A DNA stretch of 64,000 nt from a virus (lineage: Duplodnaviria; Caudoviricetes). The notes beneath the pieces are model-generated. The model did not search any database, was not told the DNA's origin, and was given only the letters and a program-made list of their open reading frames with translations. The stretch lies in the IMG/VR virus record IMGVR_UViG_3300011008_002712, one strand, 5' to 3'. This document shows positions 3,330-28,250 of the stretch, in pieces. Within the stretch, counting starts at the first letter, position 1. Each line of letters opens with the position of its first letter. Position numbers and translations under genes: made by a program.

Positions 3330-3848
3330 CTACAGCCCTTGTTGTTTAATAAAAAAATTACTATCTCTATCAGCAAACTTTGTAAAATAATCAAAAAATG
3401 GATTGTCTTTTTTTATAACATCAATGATTTGACATATCAAATCAATAGGAATTGAATACATAAGAACATGCATATATTGTTGCGAAGAATATTTTTCAAG
3501 TAATTTGTGTTCATATAATTTATGCACTTCATTTTTTATATCATTATTGATGACAACATCAAAGAAAGAAATAAAAGTTTTTTTAATCAAAATTTGTGCT
3601 CCTAATGAATAAAGATAAAAATTTTTATATCCTAAATTTTCTCTTTTACTTGGGCAATAGCTGATTCTAAATCTAATAAAATTATCCATTACTTTGCATA
3701 ATCTAACGCAATCAACATCATTCATATCTGGTTCATTCAATAAATTTTCATAATAAGTATCATAAGATCCATCATAATAAATAGGATATTCAAATAATTT
3801 ATCTAATTCATTTAAAATCATACTTTTTCTATCTATTTTTTTAATCAT
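3330..3848 (-). CDS. hypothetical protein, C-terminal GL-tag family (FIKQQGL)
   Basis: 172-aa ORF, gagga SD. Confidence 0.7.
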   Translation of the reverse strand: MIKKIDRKSMILNELDKLFEYPIYYDGSYDTYYENLLNEPDMNDVDCVRLCKVMDNFIRFRISYCPSKRENLGYKNFYLYSLGAQILIKKTFISFFDVVINNDIKNEVHKLYEHKLLEKYSSQQYMHVLMYSIPIDLICQIIDVIKKDNPFFDYFTKFADRDSNFFIKQQGL

Positions 3849-3962
3849 CTAGCGTATCCTCTAAAAAATTTTATCATTTCAATAAAGCAAATTCTTTTAT
3901 TTAATTATAACATATAACAACGTGAAAATACACAACGTATAAAAAATTCAACATAAAAGTTA

Positions 3963-3991
3963 TTTACATCAGTGTTTTTTTTTGATAAAAT
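3963..3991 (+). promoter_or_regulatory. sigma-A-type promoter of lysR-like gene
   Basis: TTTACA-N17-TAAAAT with TG extension. Confidence 0.6.
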
Positions 3992-4012
3992 TAGACATAT
4001 GAAGGGAGATAT

Positions 4013-4801
4013 GTGAACATGGAGTTTAGACAAATCAAATATTTTTATTATGTTTGTAAATACATGAATTTCACTACAGCTGCAAAAGAAATAGGGATAT
4101 CGCAACCAAATCTTACAACACAAATAAAACATCTTGAAAAAGAATTACATGTTCAGTTGTTTAATAGAACAAAACCATTGGCTTTAACAAACGGTGGAGA
4201 AATTCTGTATAAATATTCCGGTAAAATATTTGATAATGTCTTAAATATAGAACGTGAAATTAATGATTTGCTCAATCAGAAAAAATGCATTAAAATTGGA
4301 GTACCAAATTTATTGCATCCTTATTTTTGCAATTATTTTTACTCAGATAATTTTCAAGGTTTTTTCTTTGAACTATTTGAAGATAAAACTAATAATCTGA
4401 TTAAAAAATTAAATAGTGGAGAATTAGATTTTTGTATATCTCCAGCAGTTAAAAATTACAAAAAAATAAAATTAAGAAAATGTTTATTTAAAAAATATTC
4501 GAAAAGCAAATCTGTTTCAGACGATGTTTTTTCTAAAGTCGTTATTCCATGTGATACCGTATATTCATATTATATAGAAAACAGCAATTTATCTTTTATG
4601 CCAGATGTTCGTACTGACAATTTGATGAGCATAAAATATCTTTTAGATAAAAATTATGTAGCATATCTTCCGGACATGATAGATTTAGATTGTTATGTAT
4701 CTGTTCTTGATGATCATATTCCAATAGAAATAAACCTGCTTTATAAAGAAGAATACTATATGAATCATTCTATTCGAAAATTTTTAGAAAGGATAAAATA
4801 A
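4013..4801 (+). CDS. LysR-family transcriptional regulator
   Basis: N-terminal LysR wHTH (FRQIKYF...NFTTAAKEIGISQPNLTTQIKHLEKELHVQLFNR...LTNGGEILY) plus substrate-binding domain (LNSGELDFCI). Confidence 0.92.
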   Translation: MNMEFRQIKYFYYVCKYMNFTTAAKEIGISQPNLTTQIKHLEKELHVQLFNRTKPLALTNGGEILYKYSGKIFDNVLNIEREINDLLNQKKCIKIGVPNLLHPYFCNYFYSDNFQGFFFELFEDKTNNLIKKLNSGELDFCISPAVKNYKKIKLRKCLFKKYSKSKSVSDDVFSKVVIPCDTVYSYYIENSNLSFMPDVRTDNLMSIKYLLDKNYVAYLPDMIDLDCYVSVLDDHIPIEINLLYKEEYYMNHSIRKFLERIK

Positions 4802-5439
4802 TGTTTGAAGAATATAGAAAAATAAACGAAGATGCATTAAATCAATTACTTTCTATTAATTACAGCAAACCAAATTACACATTTGATAATTTTTCTAAAA
4901 AGCAATATTTGAAATGTATTCCAGAAGATTTATTTACAGACAAGCCAATTGACGGATTTGACGATAATCATTTTAAGTTGATGAACAAACATTTTTTTGT
5001 AAAGCCATATTGGAAGTGGATTAAAAAATTATCTAAGATATTAGAAAACAAATACACTGTGGAAATTTGTGCTGGAACTGGAATGCTGACACTTGCATTA
5101 GAATCTCTTGGAATAGACATCAGAGCTGTTGACAACAATAAAAGAAAATTGCCTCAGATTACAGAAATTATTTTTGATGATGCAGAACATCATTTACAAT
5201 ATAATAAATATGACGTCATGATATGTTGTTGGCCAGAAATGGACAATAGTTTTTATAAATCGTGTAACAATTTTTTAGAAAAAAATCCAGAAGGAGAAAT
5301 TATTTATTGCGGCGAATGGGAAGGTGGATGCACAGCGAATGATAATTTTTTTGAAAATTATAATTTAATGGATTTAGACATTGGATATACTAGTTGTTTT
5401 GGATTACATGACAATTTTTTTCTTGCATATAAGAAATAA
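4801..5439 (+). CDS. class I SAM-dependent methyltransferase-like protein
   Basis: motif I VEICAGTGML, acidic AVD, ICCWP and YCGEWEGGCTA motifs. Confidence 0.75.
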   Translation: MFEEYRKINEDALNQLLSINYSKPNYTFDNFSKKQYLKCIPEDLFTDKPIDGFDDNHFKLMNKHFFVKPYWKWIKKLSKILENKYTVEICAGTGMLTLALESLGIDIRAVDNNKRKLPQITEIIFDDAEHHLQYNKYDVMICCWPEMDNSFYKSCNNFLEKNPEGEIIYCGEWEGGCTANDNFFENYNLMDLDIGYTSCFGLHDNFFLAYKK

Positions 5440-5443
5440 AAAA

Positions 5444-26063: not shown

Positions 26064-26093
26064 GAGCGCGCAGCAATATGTTCATACTGCATC

Positions 26094-26447
26094 TTGAAAG
26101 GAGCAAAAATTATGGAATCAAATTCCGATATTCTTGCTAAGAAAGACAGAGAAATTTTGGAGCTCAATGTCCTTGTATTTGGATATCATCAATTACTTGT
26201 TGGATTAATCAAAGATTTTGTCAATAATGAACTTGACGAAGAATTTTGCGACTGTTGTTATGGAGGTCCTTTGTGCGATCACATAAATGATCCAAGCAGC
26301 AGGTGCGTTTACTTAAAACTTCAAAATATTGGAGAACATTGGAATACTTACGAAATAGAGAAAATTATAAAACAAGTAAAACGTAGCAAGTCTGAGCTCT
26401 TCAAGATGTATGGGAATGAGATTATCAGAGAACTTGAAGAAGATTAA
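26094..26447 (+). CDS. hypothetical protein
   Basis: 117-aa ORF. Confidence 0.65.
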   Translation: MKGAKIMESNSDILAKKDREILELNVLVFGYHQLLVGLIKDFVNNELDEEFCDCCYGGPLCDHINDPSSRCVYLKLQNIGEHWNTYEIEKIIKQVKRSKSELFKMYGNEIIRELEED

Positions 26448-26450
26448 AAT

Positions 26451-26993
26451 ATGAGGAGAATACAAATGACAAAACAAGAAAGAATGTACTGTGATTATAT
26501 TGAAAATCACGTAAATAACGTTTATAGGGCGTATCAATTGATTGGAGACATTTTGCATGAAGACTTAGATTTTGACGATCTTAGTTTAGTGAAAAGAGTT
26601 AACACTCATGACACTTCAAAATGGAGTGAAGATGAATTTGAAGCATACAGGCAAAATTTTTATCCATCAGAGCGTGAAAGAACAGACGAAGACATGTTTG
26701 AAAAGGCTTGGCAGCATCATTACAAAAACAACGATCATCATCCAGAACATTACGTATTTAATTACGCATTTTTAAACGGAGAAATCAAGCAGCTTGCGAA
26801 AGAAATGCCAGATGAAGCTATAGCAGAAATGTTTTGTGATTGGACTGCTATGTCATTGAATTTCAAGACATCTTTGAAAAAATGGTATGACAGAGCGATG
26901 AAAGACGGAAAATTTGTTTTCAATGAAAAAACACTTGAAAAAGTAGATCGTATTATGTCAAAAGAGTGGGTAAAAGATATTCATCTTAAGTGA
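26451..26993 (+). CDS. HD-like metal-dependent phosphohydrolase (DUF5662-like)
   Basis: H...HDTSK...AWQHHYKNNDHHPEHY...MP...EMFCDW. Confidence 0.75.
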   Translation: MRRIQMTKQERMYCDYIENHVNNVYRAYQLIGDILHEDLDFDDLSLVKRVNTHDTSKWSEDEFEAYRQNFYPSERERTDEDMFEKAWQHHYKNNDHHPEHYVFNYAFLNGEIKQLAKEMPDEAIAEMFCDWTAMSLNFKTSLKKWYDRAMKDGKFVFNEKTLEKVDRIMSKEWVKDIHLK

Positions 26994-27000
26994 ATGGAGT

Positions 27001-27939
27001 GTGGTATCATTGACAATGATTAGTGATGCAATGGTTCATAGATTTTTGAAAGATTTTTCGATTTCTCTTCCAGTAGAAAGAAAAGAATTTTTAGATTATT
27101 ATCTTGAAACATTTGATTCATACTTTGATATGAAGAATAAATTTGACATTTTTATGAAATGTAGAAGCTATTTTGCTAATGACGAACATTTCTATACTTA
27201 TCGTAATCGTGTAGTAGAACAAATTCTTTCTTATATTGAAAGCCATAAAAAATATATTGAATTCAATAACTGCAATTGCAAGTTTGATGAAGGATTATTG
27301 ACTACCAAGCTTCACAATAGAGACATTTTCAATCTAGAAAACGTTGGTAAGACATTTCTGAGCATTGACTTAGTAAGCGGCAATTTTACTGCAATGAAGC
27401 ATTTTGATAAAGATTTAGTCAAACATGCTGAAACATGGAAAGAATTCATGCATATCTTTTCAGAATTTGATTATTTTGCAGAAGCTAAGCATTTTCGTCA
27501 GGTTCTTTTAGGAAAATTGAATCCCAAAAGAATCATGAGATATGAGAGACTTTTGTTAGAGAGAGATATATTGAAATTTATCATTGACGATGATAAAAAT
27601 AATTTGAAGTTAGAACATATTGTCAGTCATAATTATGATGAAATCATTTTTGAGGTAGACAAAGATTTCGATGAATGTTCAGTAAATGTGCCAGAATCAT
27701 ACAAAAATGATGTACACATTGAAAAGTTTGTTTTAGAAAACATCACTCCGTATAAAATGTTTATAAAGCGTAATGGAACAAAAATGAAATTCAAATGCGT
27801 TAATTCTAAATTATTTCCGCAAGTATACAAGCATGTTATGGGATTGCCATTGCATGAAAAAGATATGTATTTCATTTCAGATACTGGACATTTATCTAAG
27901 TATATTGAAAAATTGAAATTTGAGGAGGAAGAGAGTTGA
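27001..27939 (+). CDS. hypothetical protein, possible polymerase-palm-like motifs
   Basis: FLSIDLVSGNF and SHNYDEIIF. Confidence 0.7.
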   Translation: MVSLTMISDAMVHRFLKDFSISLPVERKEFLDYYLETFDSYFDMKNKFDIFMKCRSYFANDEHFYTYRNRVVEQILSYIESHKKYIEFNNCNCKFDEGLLTTKLHNRDIFNLENVGKTFLSIDLVSGNFTAMKHFDKDLVKHAETWKEFMHIFSEFDYFAEAKHFRQVLLGKLNPKRIMRYERLLLERDILKFIIDDDKNNLKLEHIVSHNYDEIIFEVDKDFDECSVNVPESYKNDVHIEKFVLENITPYKMFIKRNGTKMKFKCVNSKLFPQVYKHVMGLPLHEKDMYFISDTGHLSKYIEKLKFEEEES

Positions 27940-28250
27940 AATGCTCTCATGGTAACGCTTGTAATTCTTTGCAGTATAAGAAAAATGATTACATTGTAGA
28001 TTTAAAATTTTTGATAAAAAATAGAATTGCTGTTACATTTACTATTAGGTGTAATAGCAATTCTTTTGAATTACACGATACTGCAAGAATAAAACTCAAG
28101 GAAGATGTTCTAACAGAAATAAAAAGAAGTTTGTCTCACAAACACAATGAAAAAGTAAGAGAATTGATATATGATTTGTTGCTGAATGATAAATTAAGAA
28201 AATTCATTTTATCTTCTCTTGATGAATATGTCAAACATGATGGTATGTAA
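27936..28250 (+). CDS. hypothetical protein, GL-tag family (YVKHDGM)
   Basis: 104-aa ORF, TTGA coupling. Confidence 0.65.
   Translation: MKCSHGNACNSLQYKKNDYIVDLKFLIKNRIAVTFTIRCNSNSFELHDTARIKLKEDVLTEIKRSLSHKHNEKVRELIYDLLLNDKLRKFILSSLDEYVKHDGM

Follow-up and report, generated by a model that had tools for sequence, protein, structure and literature searches.

A shared C-terminal tail on small proteins of megaphages

In an uncultivated 416-kb gut megaphage, about 1/14 of the gene set encodes proteins that end in the same C-terminal tail: a hydrophobic residue, Ile or Val, three free residues, Gly, and Leu (rarely Met, Ile, or Phe at position −1), followed by the stop codon. The tail-bearing ORFs of the window (the whole stretch of 64,000 nucleotides) belong to a set of small proteins that is specific to, and hugely expanded in, one clade of phage-G-like megaphages, and we lean, with limited confidence, toward reading the tail as a portable C-terminal docking handle recognized by a candidate common partner.

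A preliminary description had listed 13 ORFs with such endings in the window, and all 13 translate and end exactly as listed; Ile/Val at −6 and Gly at −2 are invariant (13/13), as it claimed, and Leu, Met, or Ile occupies −1 in all of them too. On the plus strand, translation gives ORFs of 79 amino acids (aa) ending AVLYGGL (7872..8111; 97 aa from 7818), 152 aa ending YVDYFGL (8330..8788), 59 aa ending MIITYGM (10824..11003), the shortest member in the window, 101 aa ending VVKEEGL (11021..11326), whose stop codon overlaps the next start (ATGA), 69 aa ending MIKVYGL (11838..12047), 112 aa ending LIRIIGL (12044..12382), 106 aa ending YVLHEGL (24752..25072), and 104 aa ending YVKHDGM (27936..28250). 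The minus strand carries a 172-aa ORF ending FIKQQGL (3330..3848) and a tandem of four tail-bearing genes, whose translations are 98 aa ending YIKYNGL (23348..23644, the first of the four), 109 aa ending YIKKEGI (23648..23977; 136 aa from 24058), 97 aa ending FILFFGL (23985..24278), and 111 aa ending FILRYGL (24275..24610).

The ORF at 3330..3848 has no Pfam or PHROG family and no homologue in three relatives, and a search of viral_contigs with 23648..23977 returned no relative. For 8330..8788, a search of a 5.8-billion-protein set returned only the protein itself and a 99% variant; its family has 13 members in the 416-kb genome and a 504-kb relative, and the GL ending is present in only 2 of them. 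The homologue of 24752..25072 in the 504-kb relative ends in SRSGF, and in one gut-metagenome strain the first two-thirds of 10824..11003 are swapped for ∼1700 other bases. A 300-aa ORF on the plus strand (12805..13707), which ends VGKQTGL, had been noted as a partial match; we do not count it as a member, since its paralogue at 18203-18640 (E value, 2e-48) terminates in IGKQIKF and its homologue in a relative ends differently again, so that the GL of 12805..13707 is due to chance.

Enrichment was counted with one crude ORF caller over the whole 416,024-bp genome (558 ORF calls). G[LMI] followed by a stop ends 36/558 ORFs versus 4.8 expected (Poisson P = 9e-20), and [IV]xxxG[LMI] ends 27/558 versus 0.68 expected (P = 1e-33); in 1000 shuffles of the last 30 residues, the maxima were 11 and 3, respectively. 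The enrichment is thus far above chance, and the set is bigger than first listed, with ∼39 members in the 416-kb genome, at least 87 in the 504-kb relative, and at least 33 in a 281-kb relative.

The 416-kb phage is a relative of Bacillus phage G (its TerL is 58% identical to phage G gp1, and the G+C content is the same). Tail genes account for 87/719 ORFs in the 504-kb and 33/401 ORFs in the 281-kb megaphage, whereas phage G, analyzed with the same caller as a negative control, has 5/689 ORFs ending in G[LMI] and 0 ending in [IV]xxxG[LMI]. The observed/expected ratio for GL-stop is 16.6 in the 416-kb genome and 30.5 and 13.1 in the two relatives but 0.3 in phage G; neither phage G nor a 379-kb relative has tail genes above chance. 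Conservation of the terminal motif in related phages, proposed earlier as a check, was found both across relatives and inside families: in family alignments, the last 8 columns are the best conserved (0.50 versus 0.22, 0.56 versus 0.18, and 0.46 versus 0.23), and a profile search across 1.84 billion proteins gave 13 full-length matches, of which 12 end in GL and one in GF. On an unrelated ENA contig, three genes in a row have the endings FGY, VGF, and IGL. We found no paper in the literature that describes such a tail.

Among 36 core members in the 416-kb genome, position −6 is Ile in 19, Val in 11, Leu in 4, and Thr in 2 (Ile/Val in 30/36), and Gly at −2 and Leu, Met, or Ile at −1 are present in 36/36. 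The residue at −3 is mostly Tyr, Glu, Phe, Asn, or Gln in this genome, with Ile, Val, or Leu in the minority; Ile or Val is found there in about one-quarter of the members in the 504-kb relative. Many tails read YGL, FGL, or YGM, and the chain always stops exactly one residue past the penultimate Gly. Conservation reaches further than the last seven residues: in a leave-one-out test, members can be told apart from 361 control ORFs by positions −8 to −20 alone (AUC, 0.82; P = 1.5e-10). The tail is preceded by an amphipathic helix spanning roughly −20 to −9, where Pro and Gly are depleted (helical hydrophobic moment, 1.31 versus 0.98). The members are small (median, 112 aa; 75% are 70 to 135 aa long), soluble, and very fast-evolving, with a net charge of +3.2 versus −1.15 and TM-like segments in 3.8% versus 13.8%. 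They lack membrane or Sec-type hydrophobic segments, and the export role suggested in the preliminary description is not supported.

The constraint acts on the protein

The tail had been proposed to be constrained at the protein level rather than as a DNA repeat or as the Shine-Dalgarno sequence of the next gene, and codon usage bears this out. In the tails, Gly is encoded by each of its four codons and Leu by five or six of its own (TTR and CTN), and strain variants of 11838..12047 differ in two tail codons, GGG to GGA (Gly) and CTA to TTA (Leu), both silent. A nucleic-acid or translation-level feature, be it a Shine-Dalgarno sequence, a termination/re-initiation context, or a DNA repeat, would account for several biases: the Gly codon is GGA/GGG in 78% of cases versus 50% genome-wide, TGA stops are found in 45% of members versus 29%, and ATGA overlaps occur in 21% versus 6%. 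However, neither the GGR nor the TGA preference depends on a nearby downstream gene (for GGR, 0.79 in genes without a following gene and 0.86 in those with an overlapping one), 35% of members have no gene within 40 nt downstream, and GG lies just 2 nt before an overlapping ATG. Met and Ile are tolerated in place of Leu, protein-level conservation reaches −6 and on to −20, and no conserved DNA was found past the stop codon among tail genes. We conclude that the constraint on the tail acts on the protein; the DNA-level reading is already largely refuted, and we give it hardly any weight.

Divergent bodies and a portable tail

Homology between the bodies was not detectable by BLAST, HMM, or HH comparison: BLAST at an E value of 1e-3 splits 159 members into 141 groups, 114/136 queries remain singletons in iterated HMM searches, and hhalign gives ≤2% probability for 13 subfamily bodies. 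The N termini of members are not alike, and member-to-member top matches are in weak excess (31/170 versus 16.3 expected). On the other hand, the genes form tandem arrays (with 12, 38, and 19 pairs of neighboring members in the three tail-bearing genomes versus 2.7, 10.4, and 2.7 in shuffles), the size range is narrow, the N-terminal half is β-rich (P = 1e-17) and the C-terminal half helical, and two models, one of them poor, have the same order of four strands and then three helices. On these grounds, most small members are probably one hyper-diverged family, even though sequence methods link none of them. The earlier claim that the bodies are unrelated therefore stands only insofar as no sequence method connects them; a single fold, which the preliminary description had named as a case against its own proposal, is partly borne out by the arrays, sizes, and secondary-structure profile.

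Its description of the tail as modular agrees with our results. At least three other body types carry the tail besides the small-protein type; it is kept in a ∼200-aa CxxC..CxxC family and in a 520-aa orthologue pair, and a 213-aa tail protein has an orthologue (E value, 8e-46) without the last ∼18 residues. Different bodies thus bear the tail, and some orthologues have it where others do not.

A structural cap or a docking motif

Could the tail be simply the structural ending of one hyper-diverged fold family, a last helix with a Schellman-type C-cap, kept for the fold and unread by any partner? In such a cap, the hydrophobic residue at −6 would pack on −1 and the Gly would take a left-handed conformation. 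The pattern h-x-x-x-G-h is the Schellman helix-cap pattern of Aurora and Rose, and the tail spacing fits it. Also in line with a structural ending are the strong helical moment and the Pro/Gly depletion at −20 to −9, the excess of adjacent pairs over shuffles, the narrow size range, and the β-rich N-terminal half with four strands and then three helices in both models. In a low-confidence AlphaFold model of 24275..24610, which has this order, the last helix reaches residue 109 of 111 and stops just before GL.

The cap fares less well with the presence of the tail on dissimilar bodies and with its loss from an orthologue that retains the body. It is also less readily squared with the one confident AlphaFold model (pLDDT, 83.8; pTM, 0.73), which represents a family from the 504-kb relative, not a window protein: the β4-α3 body is confident, but only a 3-residue helix (residues 86-88) is found near the end, and the last five residues (89-93, RSMGL) are nonhelical and below a pLDDT of 50. 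This family has Pro at −10 (−11 in its other members), and structure searches gave no match with Z above 5.8. Low pLDDT is common at chain ends and is weak evidence alone. These five residues are unpacked in the model, yet no other part of the family is as well conserved, a combination that makes a short C-terminal docking motif the most likely explanation. Furthermore, Ile, Val, or Phe at −1 would also suit a cap, yet Leu is preferred ∼18-fold over Ile in the 416-kb genome (observed/expected, 16.6 versus 0.9); such a strong preference for Leu over Ile/Val hints at a specific pocket more than at mere hydrophobic packing. A cap also leaves no reason for the protein always to end exactly one residue after the Gly. 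We consider a purely structural ending rather unlikely.

A candidate docking handle and its receptor

Most small members probably arose by tandem duplication of one β4-α3-type domain and then diverged past recognition, and the tail would be a separable module, also borne by other bodies and gained or lost between orthologues. As a docking handle, it would offer its free Gly-Leu carboxyl terminus to a single putative receptor, which would thereby gather a wide range of effector bodies at one location. We rate highest the sub-case in which diverse basic effectors would be loaded into the very large capsid for coinjection, as are the T4 internal proteins; docking on a host hub would come next. 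The docking handle is favored by the clade-wide enrichment with phage G as a negative control, by a protein-level constraint that is strongest in the last 8 columns within families, by the portability of the tail and its absence in some orthologues, by the unpacked last five residues together with the Leu preference, and by the basic charge of members in which TM-like segments are rare. Against these points, no partner was found, the single confident structure comes from the 504-kb relative's family, and the Schellman-like pattern means that some of the conservation may have structural reasons only; the arrays, sizes, and shared profile also fit one fold family needing no outside reader, and carriers make up 5-17% of all genes, which is very many for one receptor.

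A ClpP, PDZ protein, S41 protease, E1, or JAB encoded by the phage itself is ruled out as the receptor. This bears on the protease degron/adaptor role put forward in the preliminary description, in which a C-terminal degron would permit timed removal by a host protease or a phage ClpX-like unfoldase. Proteases classically recognize exposed hydrophobic tags at the C terminus, and the 416-kb genome and the 504-kb relative encode a ClpX-like protein that shares 43-44% identity with phage G gp258. However, the tail-bearing phages encode no PDZ protein, S41 tail-specific protease, or ClpP, and ClpX is found in tail-less phage G and the 379-kb relative but is absent from the 281-kb relative with its at least 33 tails. 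To our knowledge, Gly-Leu is not a ClpX, Lon, FtsH, or Tsp signal, and we find a degron quite improbable.

The conjugation role proposed at the same time, in which the last residue would be clipped to expose Gly for ligation, finds even less room. Such clipping is known from Atg8/GABARAP and from bacterial ubiquitin-like systems; Atg8/GABARAP proteins end in ..YGL, which the tail resembles, and Gly is penultimate in many tails. But PF00899 (ThiF/E1) and PF14464 (JAB) are absent from all three tail-bearing genomes by searches whose controls were detected; the confident model is β4-α3, not β-grasp; and dozens to >100 modifiers per genome would lack precedent. The role is scarcely credible, and the four-strand, three-helix model without a match of Z > 5.8, together with the lack of a phage-encoded E1 and JAB, rules against a ubiquitin-like or Atg8-like modifier.

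Going beyond docking as such, it is possible, though not probable, that the tail is the address label of a phage protein-sorting system, in which one receptor (for example, a head-core or portal-associated protein or a host hub) would recognize the free [IV]xxxGL terminus and serve 40 to >100 different, fast-evolving effectors, and each megaphage lineage would have an ending of its own. If so, effectors could be loaded into the giant capsid for coinjection against host defenses.

Comparison with known systems

Known docking elements of similar kind are the clamp-binding end of Escherichia coli Pol IV (QLVLGL), the [LIV]-G-[FL] loops by which ClpX and ClpA dock on ClpP, and PDZ ligands. In these, a ring-shaped hub takes up a short hydrophobic-Gly-Leu peptide (a free chain end in Pol IV) in a hydrophobic pocket. 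The β-clamp motif (QL[SD]LF/QLxLxL) calls for Gln at its first position, which is −6 in a Pol IV-type end; the common residues at −6 do not include Gln in any of the three genomes, and Ile, Val, Leu, or Thr there in 36/36 core members of the 416-kb genome rules against this motif. The ClpP-docking element is an internal loop of an AAA+ ATPase, and it is ruled against by carriers that are not AAA+, by the prevalence of Tyr, Glu, Phe, Asn, and Gln at −3, and by the lack of a phage ClpP. None of the Pol IV, ClpX, ClpA, or PDZ systems has dozens of clients per genome. The Schellman C-cap has the exact spacing of the tail, but a cap belongs to the structure of a single protein and is not an ending common to many, and it leaves the fixed stop, the Leu preference, the portability, and the low-confidence tail in the model unexplained.

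Lineage-specific expansions of small domains are known in jumbo phages; in Bacillus phage G, for instance, the zinc ribbon is present in ∼35 copies (Iyer et al. 2021, PMC7824862). Both expansions occur in the same phage group and form tandem arrays of many small paralogues; however, the zinc-ribbon copies are homologous over the whole domain, whereas the tail proteins are alike only at their last residues and include other bodies, and phage G has the zinc ribbons but not the tail.

The T4 internal proteins IPI, IPII, and IPIII are small, basic, and highly diverse and have a short terminal peptide in common (Rao and Black 2010, PMC3012670), the capsid targeting sequence (CTS), which is read by one phage structure (PMC3012670). 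The CTS sits at the N terminus, and the head protease removes it by cutting after Leu/Ile-x-Glu, whereas the tail is C-terminal with a free Gly-Leu; the CTS marks a handful of proteins in T4, and the tail marks the products of 39 to >100 genes. A T4-type N-terminal CTS is itself ruled against, since the element lies at the extreme C terminus and the N termini are not alike. What the two systems share is a short terminal peptide as the only common element on diverse, basic, small proteins.

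A Gly-Leu ending is enriched in this genome and in its tail-bearing relatives

The window corresponds to bases 159,998 to 223,997, on the minus strand, of a 416,024-bp IMG/VR record (G+C, 29.7%). Because its large terminase shares 58% identity with gp1 of Bacillus phage G, we regard the virus as an uncultivated phage-G-like megaphage. Contigs near-identical or 95 to 97% identical to it come from sheep, goat, and other gut metagenomes; the sequencing runs in which the phage occurs are DNA runs from these sources, with no RNA run among them. NrdD, RecA, PhoH, and helicase genes also lie within the window. 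Homing-endonuclease-like ORFs (PHROG and NUMOD3 matches) at 28620-31920 and 40443-41510 adjoin NrdD and PhoH, and the terminase of many relatives is interrupted by inteins; selfish elements are abundant in this phage clade.

The preliminary description listed 13 window ORFs, mostly small, that stop after hydrophobic-[IV]-x-x-x-Gly-[LMI] (the tail; proteins that carry it are called members), and translation confirmed all 13. A single crude, uniform caller, run over the complete genome, yielded 558 ORFs. Of these, 36 terminate in G[LMI], where 4.8 would be expected, and 27 in [IV]xxxG[LMI], where the expectation is 0.68 (Poisson P, 1e-33). Shuffling the last 30 residues 1000 times never gave more than 11 and 3 such endings, respectively. 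Three further members are hidden under overlapping ORF calls. Members map to 195 to 370 kb of the genome, save one at 415.6 kb, which lacks Ile/Val at -6. The ORF at 12805-13707, previously put forward as a partial match, is not a member: its Gly-Leu is there by chance, and its paralog at 18203-18640 and a relative's homolog end differently. These two paralogs (300 and 145 aa; E, 2e-48), with a common C-terminal ...GSINF[VI]GKQ... region, have no relation to the Gly-Leu set. Midway along the array, the 170-aa ORF 11323-11835 ends in IDLLKGK, with a penultimate Gly and Lys in place of Leu, and may carry a decayed or variant tail. The adjacent ORFs 17136-17885 and 17879-18100 have similar Gly/Ser-rich tails, GSSGGGGASGSW and GDSGGGGCSSDW.

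Relatives were picked via the terminase, and their whole records were then taken. G[LMI] endings are found in 87 of 719 ORFs of a 504-kb record (large-terminase identity, 85%), in 33 of 401 ORFs in the first 280 kb of a 281-kb record (74%), in a single ORF of a 379-kb record (66%; 1.6 GL endings expected), and in 0 and 3 ORFs of two fragments. The complete genome of phage G, of the same G+C, has 5 among 689 ORFs, none with Ile/Val at -6. GL-stop exceeds expectation 16.6-fold in this genome and 30.5- and 13.1-fold in the two tail-bearing relatives; in phage G the observed/expected ratio is 0.3. A penultimate Gly occurs in 154 of the 719 ORFs of the 504-kb record, where GY and GF endings are enriched too, and three consecutive genes on an unrelated 1.6-kb ENA contig end in FGY, VGF, and IGL. 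Given this contig and the GL-stop excess in relatives and not in phage G, we conclude that the Gly-Leu ending is real, clade-wide, and lineage-specific. In these gut megaphages, tail genes account for 5 to 17% of all genes and form the largest single block among the unknown ones.

The 379-kb relative (G004, IMGVR_UViG_3300043080_000590) has no GL-stop excess; among the 24 ORFs in which it has a Gly at -2, Gly-Glu is the ending of 12. A mild enrichment of GE-stop is also seen in this genome (6), in the 504-kb relative (11), and in phage G (7), and Gly-Glu may be another lineage-specific ending.

The constraint acts on the protein

A nucleic-acid-level cause would place the constraint in a DNA repeat or in the Shine-Dalgarno sequence of the next gene. 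The Gly codons are indeed biased to GGA/GGG, but this share does not depend on a downstream gene (0.79 with none within 40 nt, 0.86 with an overlapping gene, and 0.68 with a close one), and 56 of 159 members lack a close downstream neighbor. All four Gly codons are used, Leu is encoded by both TTR and CTN codons, Met or Ile can take its place, and no DNA position 3' of the stop is conserved in tail genes. Strain variants from two metagenome studies change GGG to GGA (Gly) and CTA to TTA (Leu) in the tail of 11838-12047, both silently. The earlier argument that the ending is neither a repeat nor a by-product of a Shine-Dalgarno sequence holds, and a cause at this level is very improbable.

In strain variants from gut metagenomes, stretches of the tail-gene array at 10820-10942, 11364-11788, and 11908-11980 are affected by replacement (∼1700 and 68 bases of other sequence) or by deletion (423 bases); such arrays are gene-turnover hot spots.

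Anatomy and conservation of the tail

Aligned from the C terminus, this genome's core set of 36 members has an invariant Gly at -2, with Leu at -1 and Ile or Val at -6 in 30 each; Leu is preferred ∼18-fold to Ile, an equally common residue. Weaker preferences are aromatic at -11, acidic at -9, and hydrophobic at -14/-15 and -18. Positions -8 to -20 alone tell members from 361 control ORFs (leave-one-out matrix; AUC, 0.82; P, 1.5e-10), and no signal was detectable upstream of -21 in the ungapped alignment. The helical hydrophobic moment at -20 to -9 is raised (1.31 versus 0.98), with Pro and Gly scarce. In relatives, -6 is looser and Gly-Leu is kept. Searches with a tail HMM revealed neither internal copies nor clear members that lack the ending.

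Within families, conservation peaks in the last eight columns (0.50 versus 0.22, 0.56 versus 0.18, and 0.46 versus 0.23). A profile of a typical tail family from the 504-kb relative, searched against 1.84 billion representative proteins, found 14 proteins; among the 13 full-length ones, 12 end in GL and one in GF. The prospect, raised in the preliminary description, that orthologs would not conserve the motif was therefore not borne out. A CxxC..CxxC family of ∼200 aa has G[LI] in six of six members, and a 520-aa ortholog pair keeps GL; its shorter paralogs lack the whole C-terminal extension. Only two proteins in the 13-member family of 8330-8788 end in GL, and a homolog of 24752-25072 ends in SGF. 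For one 213-aa protein encoded here, the alignment with its ortholog from the 504-kb relative (E, 8e-46) stops ∼18 residues before the end, and the ending ...FLIKTEGL is present only on the protein of this genome. A reading of this carrier as uracil-DNA-glycosylase-like was dropped, Pfam having given no match.

Relatedness and structure of the bodies

The proteins had been described as unrelated apart from the tail, and by sequence comparison this stands. BLAST sorted 159 members into 141 groups, iterated HMM searches left 114 of 136 queries as singletons, and hhalign probabilities among the bodies of 13 subfamilies were ≤2% (maximum, 6.7% with tails included). At E of 0.001, Pfam and PHROGs gave no match to any of this genome's 36 members, hardly any of which has an ortholog in the relative with 85% terminase identity. 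Homologue searches with window members each returned only the query, viral_contigs contained no relatives of 23648-23977 or the neighboring 25005-26063, and cultured phages gave no match by megablast or tblastn. A profile of all 36 members, too weak to be informative, matched nothing in five relatives.

Unrelatedness by descent is a different matter. In the three tail-bearing genomes, 12, 38, and 19 pairs of members are adjacent, versus 2.7, 10.4, and 2.7 in shuffles; 75% of members, versus 30% of other ORFs, are 70 to 135 aa long; and member-to-member top matches are twice the expected number. Strand propensity rises in chain deciles 2 to 5 and in the last decile, with controls flat (P, 1e-17), and both AlphaFold models have four strands followed by three helices. 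The agreement of these lines points to common descent of most small members.

Of the two models, that of 24275-24610, from a mixed alignment of all 36 members, is poor (pLDDT, 50); its ESM Atlas entry is likewise a single poor model with uninformative neighbors. The typical-family model (17 sequences) is confident (pLDDT, 83.8; pTM, 0.73), with strands at 2-7, 11-17, 29-35, and 40-45 and helices at 46-49, 56-65, and 72-80, then a conserved F-Y-P-L and a three-residue helical turn. Foldseek against PDB and BFVD returned nothing at E ≤0.001, the best VIA-align wide hit (Z, 5.8) was within noise, and an Atlas fold search gave TM values of <0.5 save for one short match, so the predicted fold is without a convincing relative. 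Homodimer prediction for this family scored 0.01, a value that speaks neither for nor against a dimer.

Common descent and the amphipathic tail would suit a purely structural helix cap within one diverged fold, a striking case of a family diverged until only its last residues are recognizable. The ending of the 213-aa protein and the confident model, in which the last five residues (RSMGL) have pLDDT of <50, sit less well with this explanation, which we consider unlikely. The residues best conserved in this family are thus those that the model fails to place on the body, as is typical of peptides with a binding partner; one model, at a chain end, is thin evidence.

Search for a reader of the tail

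None of the three tail-bearing genomes has PDZ_2, ClpP, S41 peptidase, ThiF/E1, or prokaryotic JAB domains, whereas control genomes were positive for all five. Conjugation through the invariant Gly, exposed by clipping, would call on such machinery and has very little probability. A degron finds a possible partner in a ClpX-like protein (G000:C1:114993-116126, outside the window); those of this genome and the 504-kb relative are 43 to 44% identical to phage G gp258. The two genomes lack ClpP, phage G has both ClpP and ClpX, and the 281-kb relative has neither. Because the ClpX-like protein occurs in tail-less phages (phage G and the 379-kb relative) and is missing from the tail-bearing 281-kb relative, it is disfavored as a dedicated reader, and a degron is quite improbable. 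Resemblances to Atg8-like, clamp-binding, and ClpP-loop motifs failed feature tests.

Thirty proteins are common to the three tail-bearing genomes and were not found in phage G; ∼25 are also absent from the 379-kb relative. Most belong to the virion/structural region or are small and of unknown type. The only names that Pfam gave among the 30 were dCMP deaminase, GIY-YIG nuclease, and NrdD, with no obvious receptor. TM-like segments are rare in members (3.8% versus 13.8%), and members are basic (+3.2 versus -1.15); being soluble and basic, they are unlikely to undergo Sec export or membrane insertion. Around the arrays, scans for sigma-70 promoters and for terminators gave site numbers not above those of shuffled sequence.

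Comparison with known systems

On balance we lean toward reading the tail as a portable C-terminal docking handle on a hyper-expanded, fast-evolving effector set. If the tail is such an address label, one receptor would organize dozens of fast-evolving effectors, finding it would give a handle on the function of these genes, and the tail could serve as a portable tag for cargo delivery. The ending also offers a simple sequence rule for spotting this gene class in metagenomes where homology searches fail.

Literature searches returned no description of a Gly-Leu ending; what came up were jumbo-phage expansions and the T4 capsid targeting sequence. Lineage-specific expansions are known in jumbo phages, e.g., ∼35 zinc ribbons in phage G (PMC7824862). 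For a docking handle, the closest worked precedent is T4, which loads its head with diverse basic proteins; the T4 targeting sequence, however, is N-terminal and cleaved (Rao and Black 2010, PMC3012670), whereas the tail described here is C-terminal.
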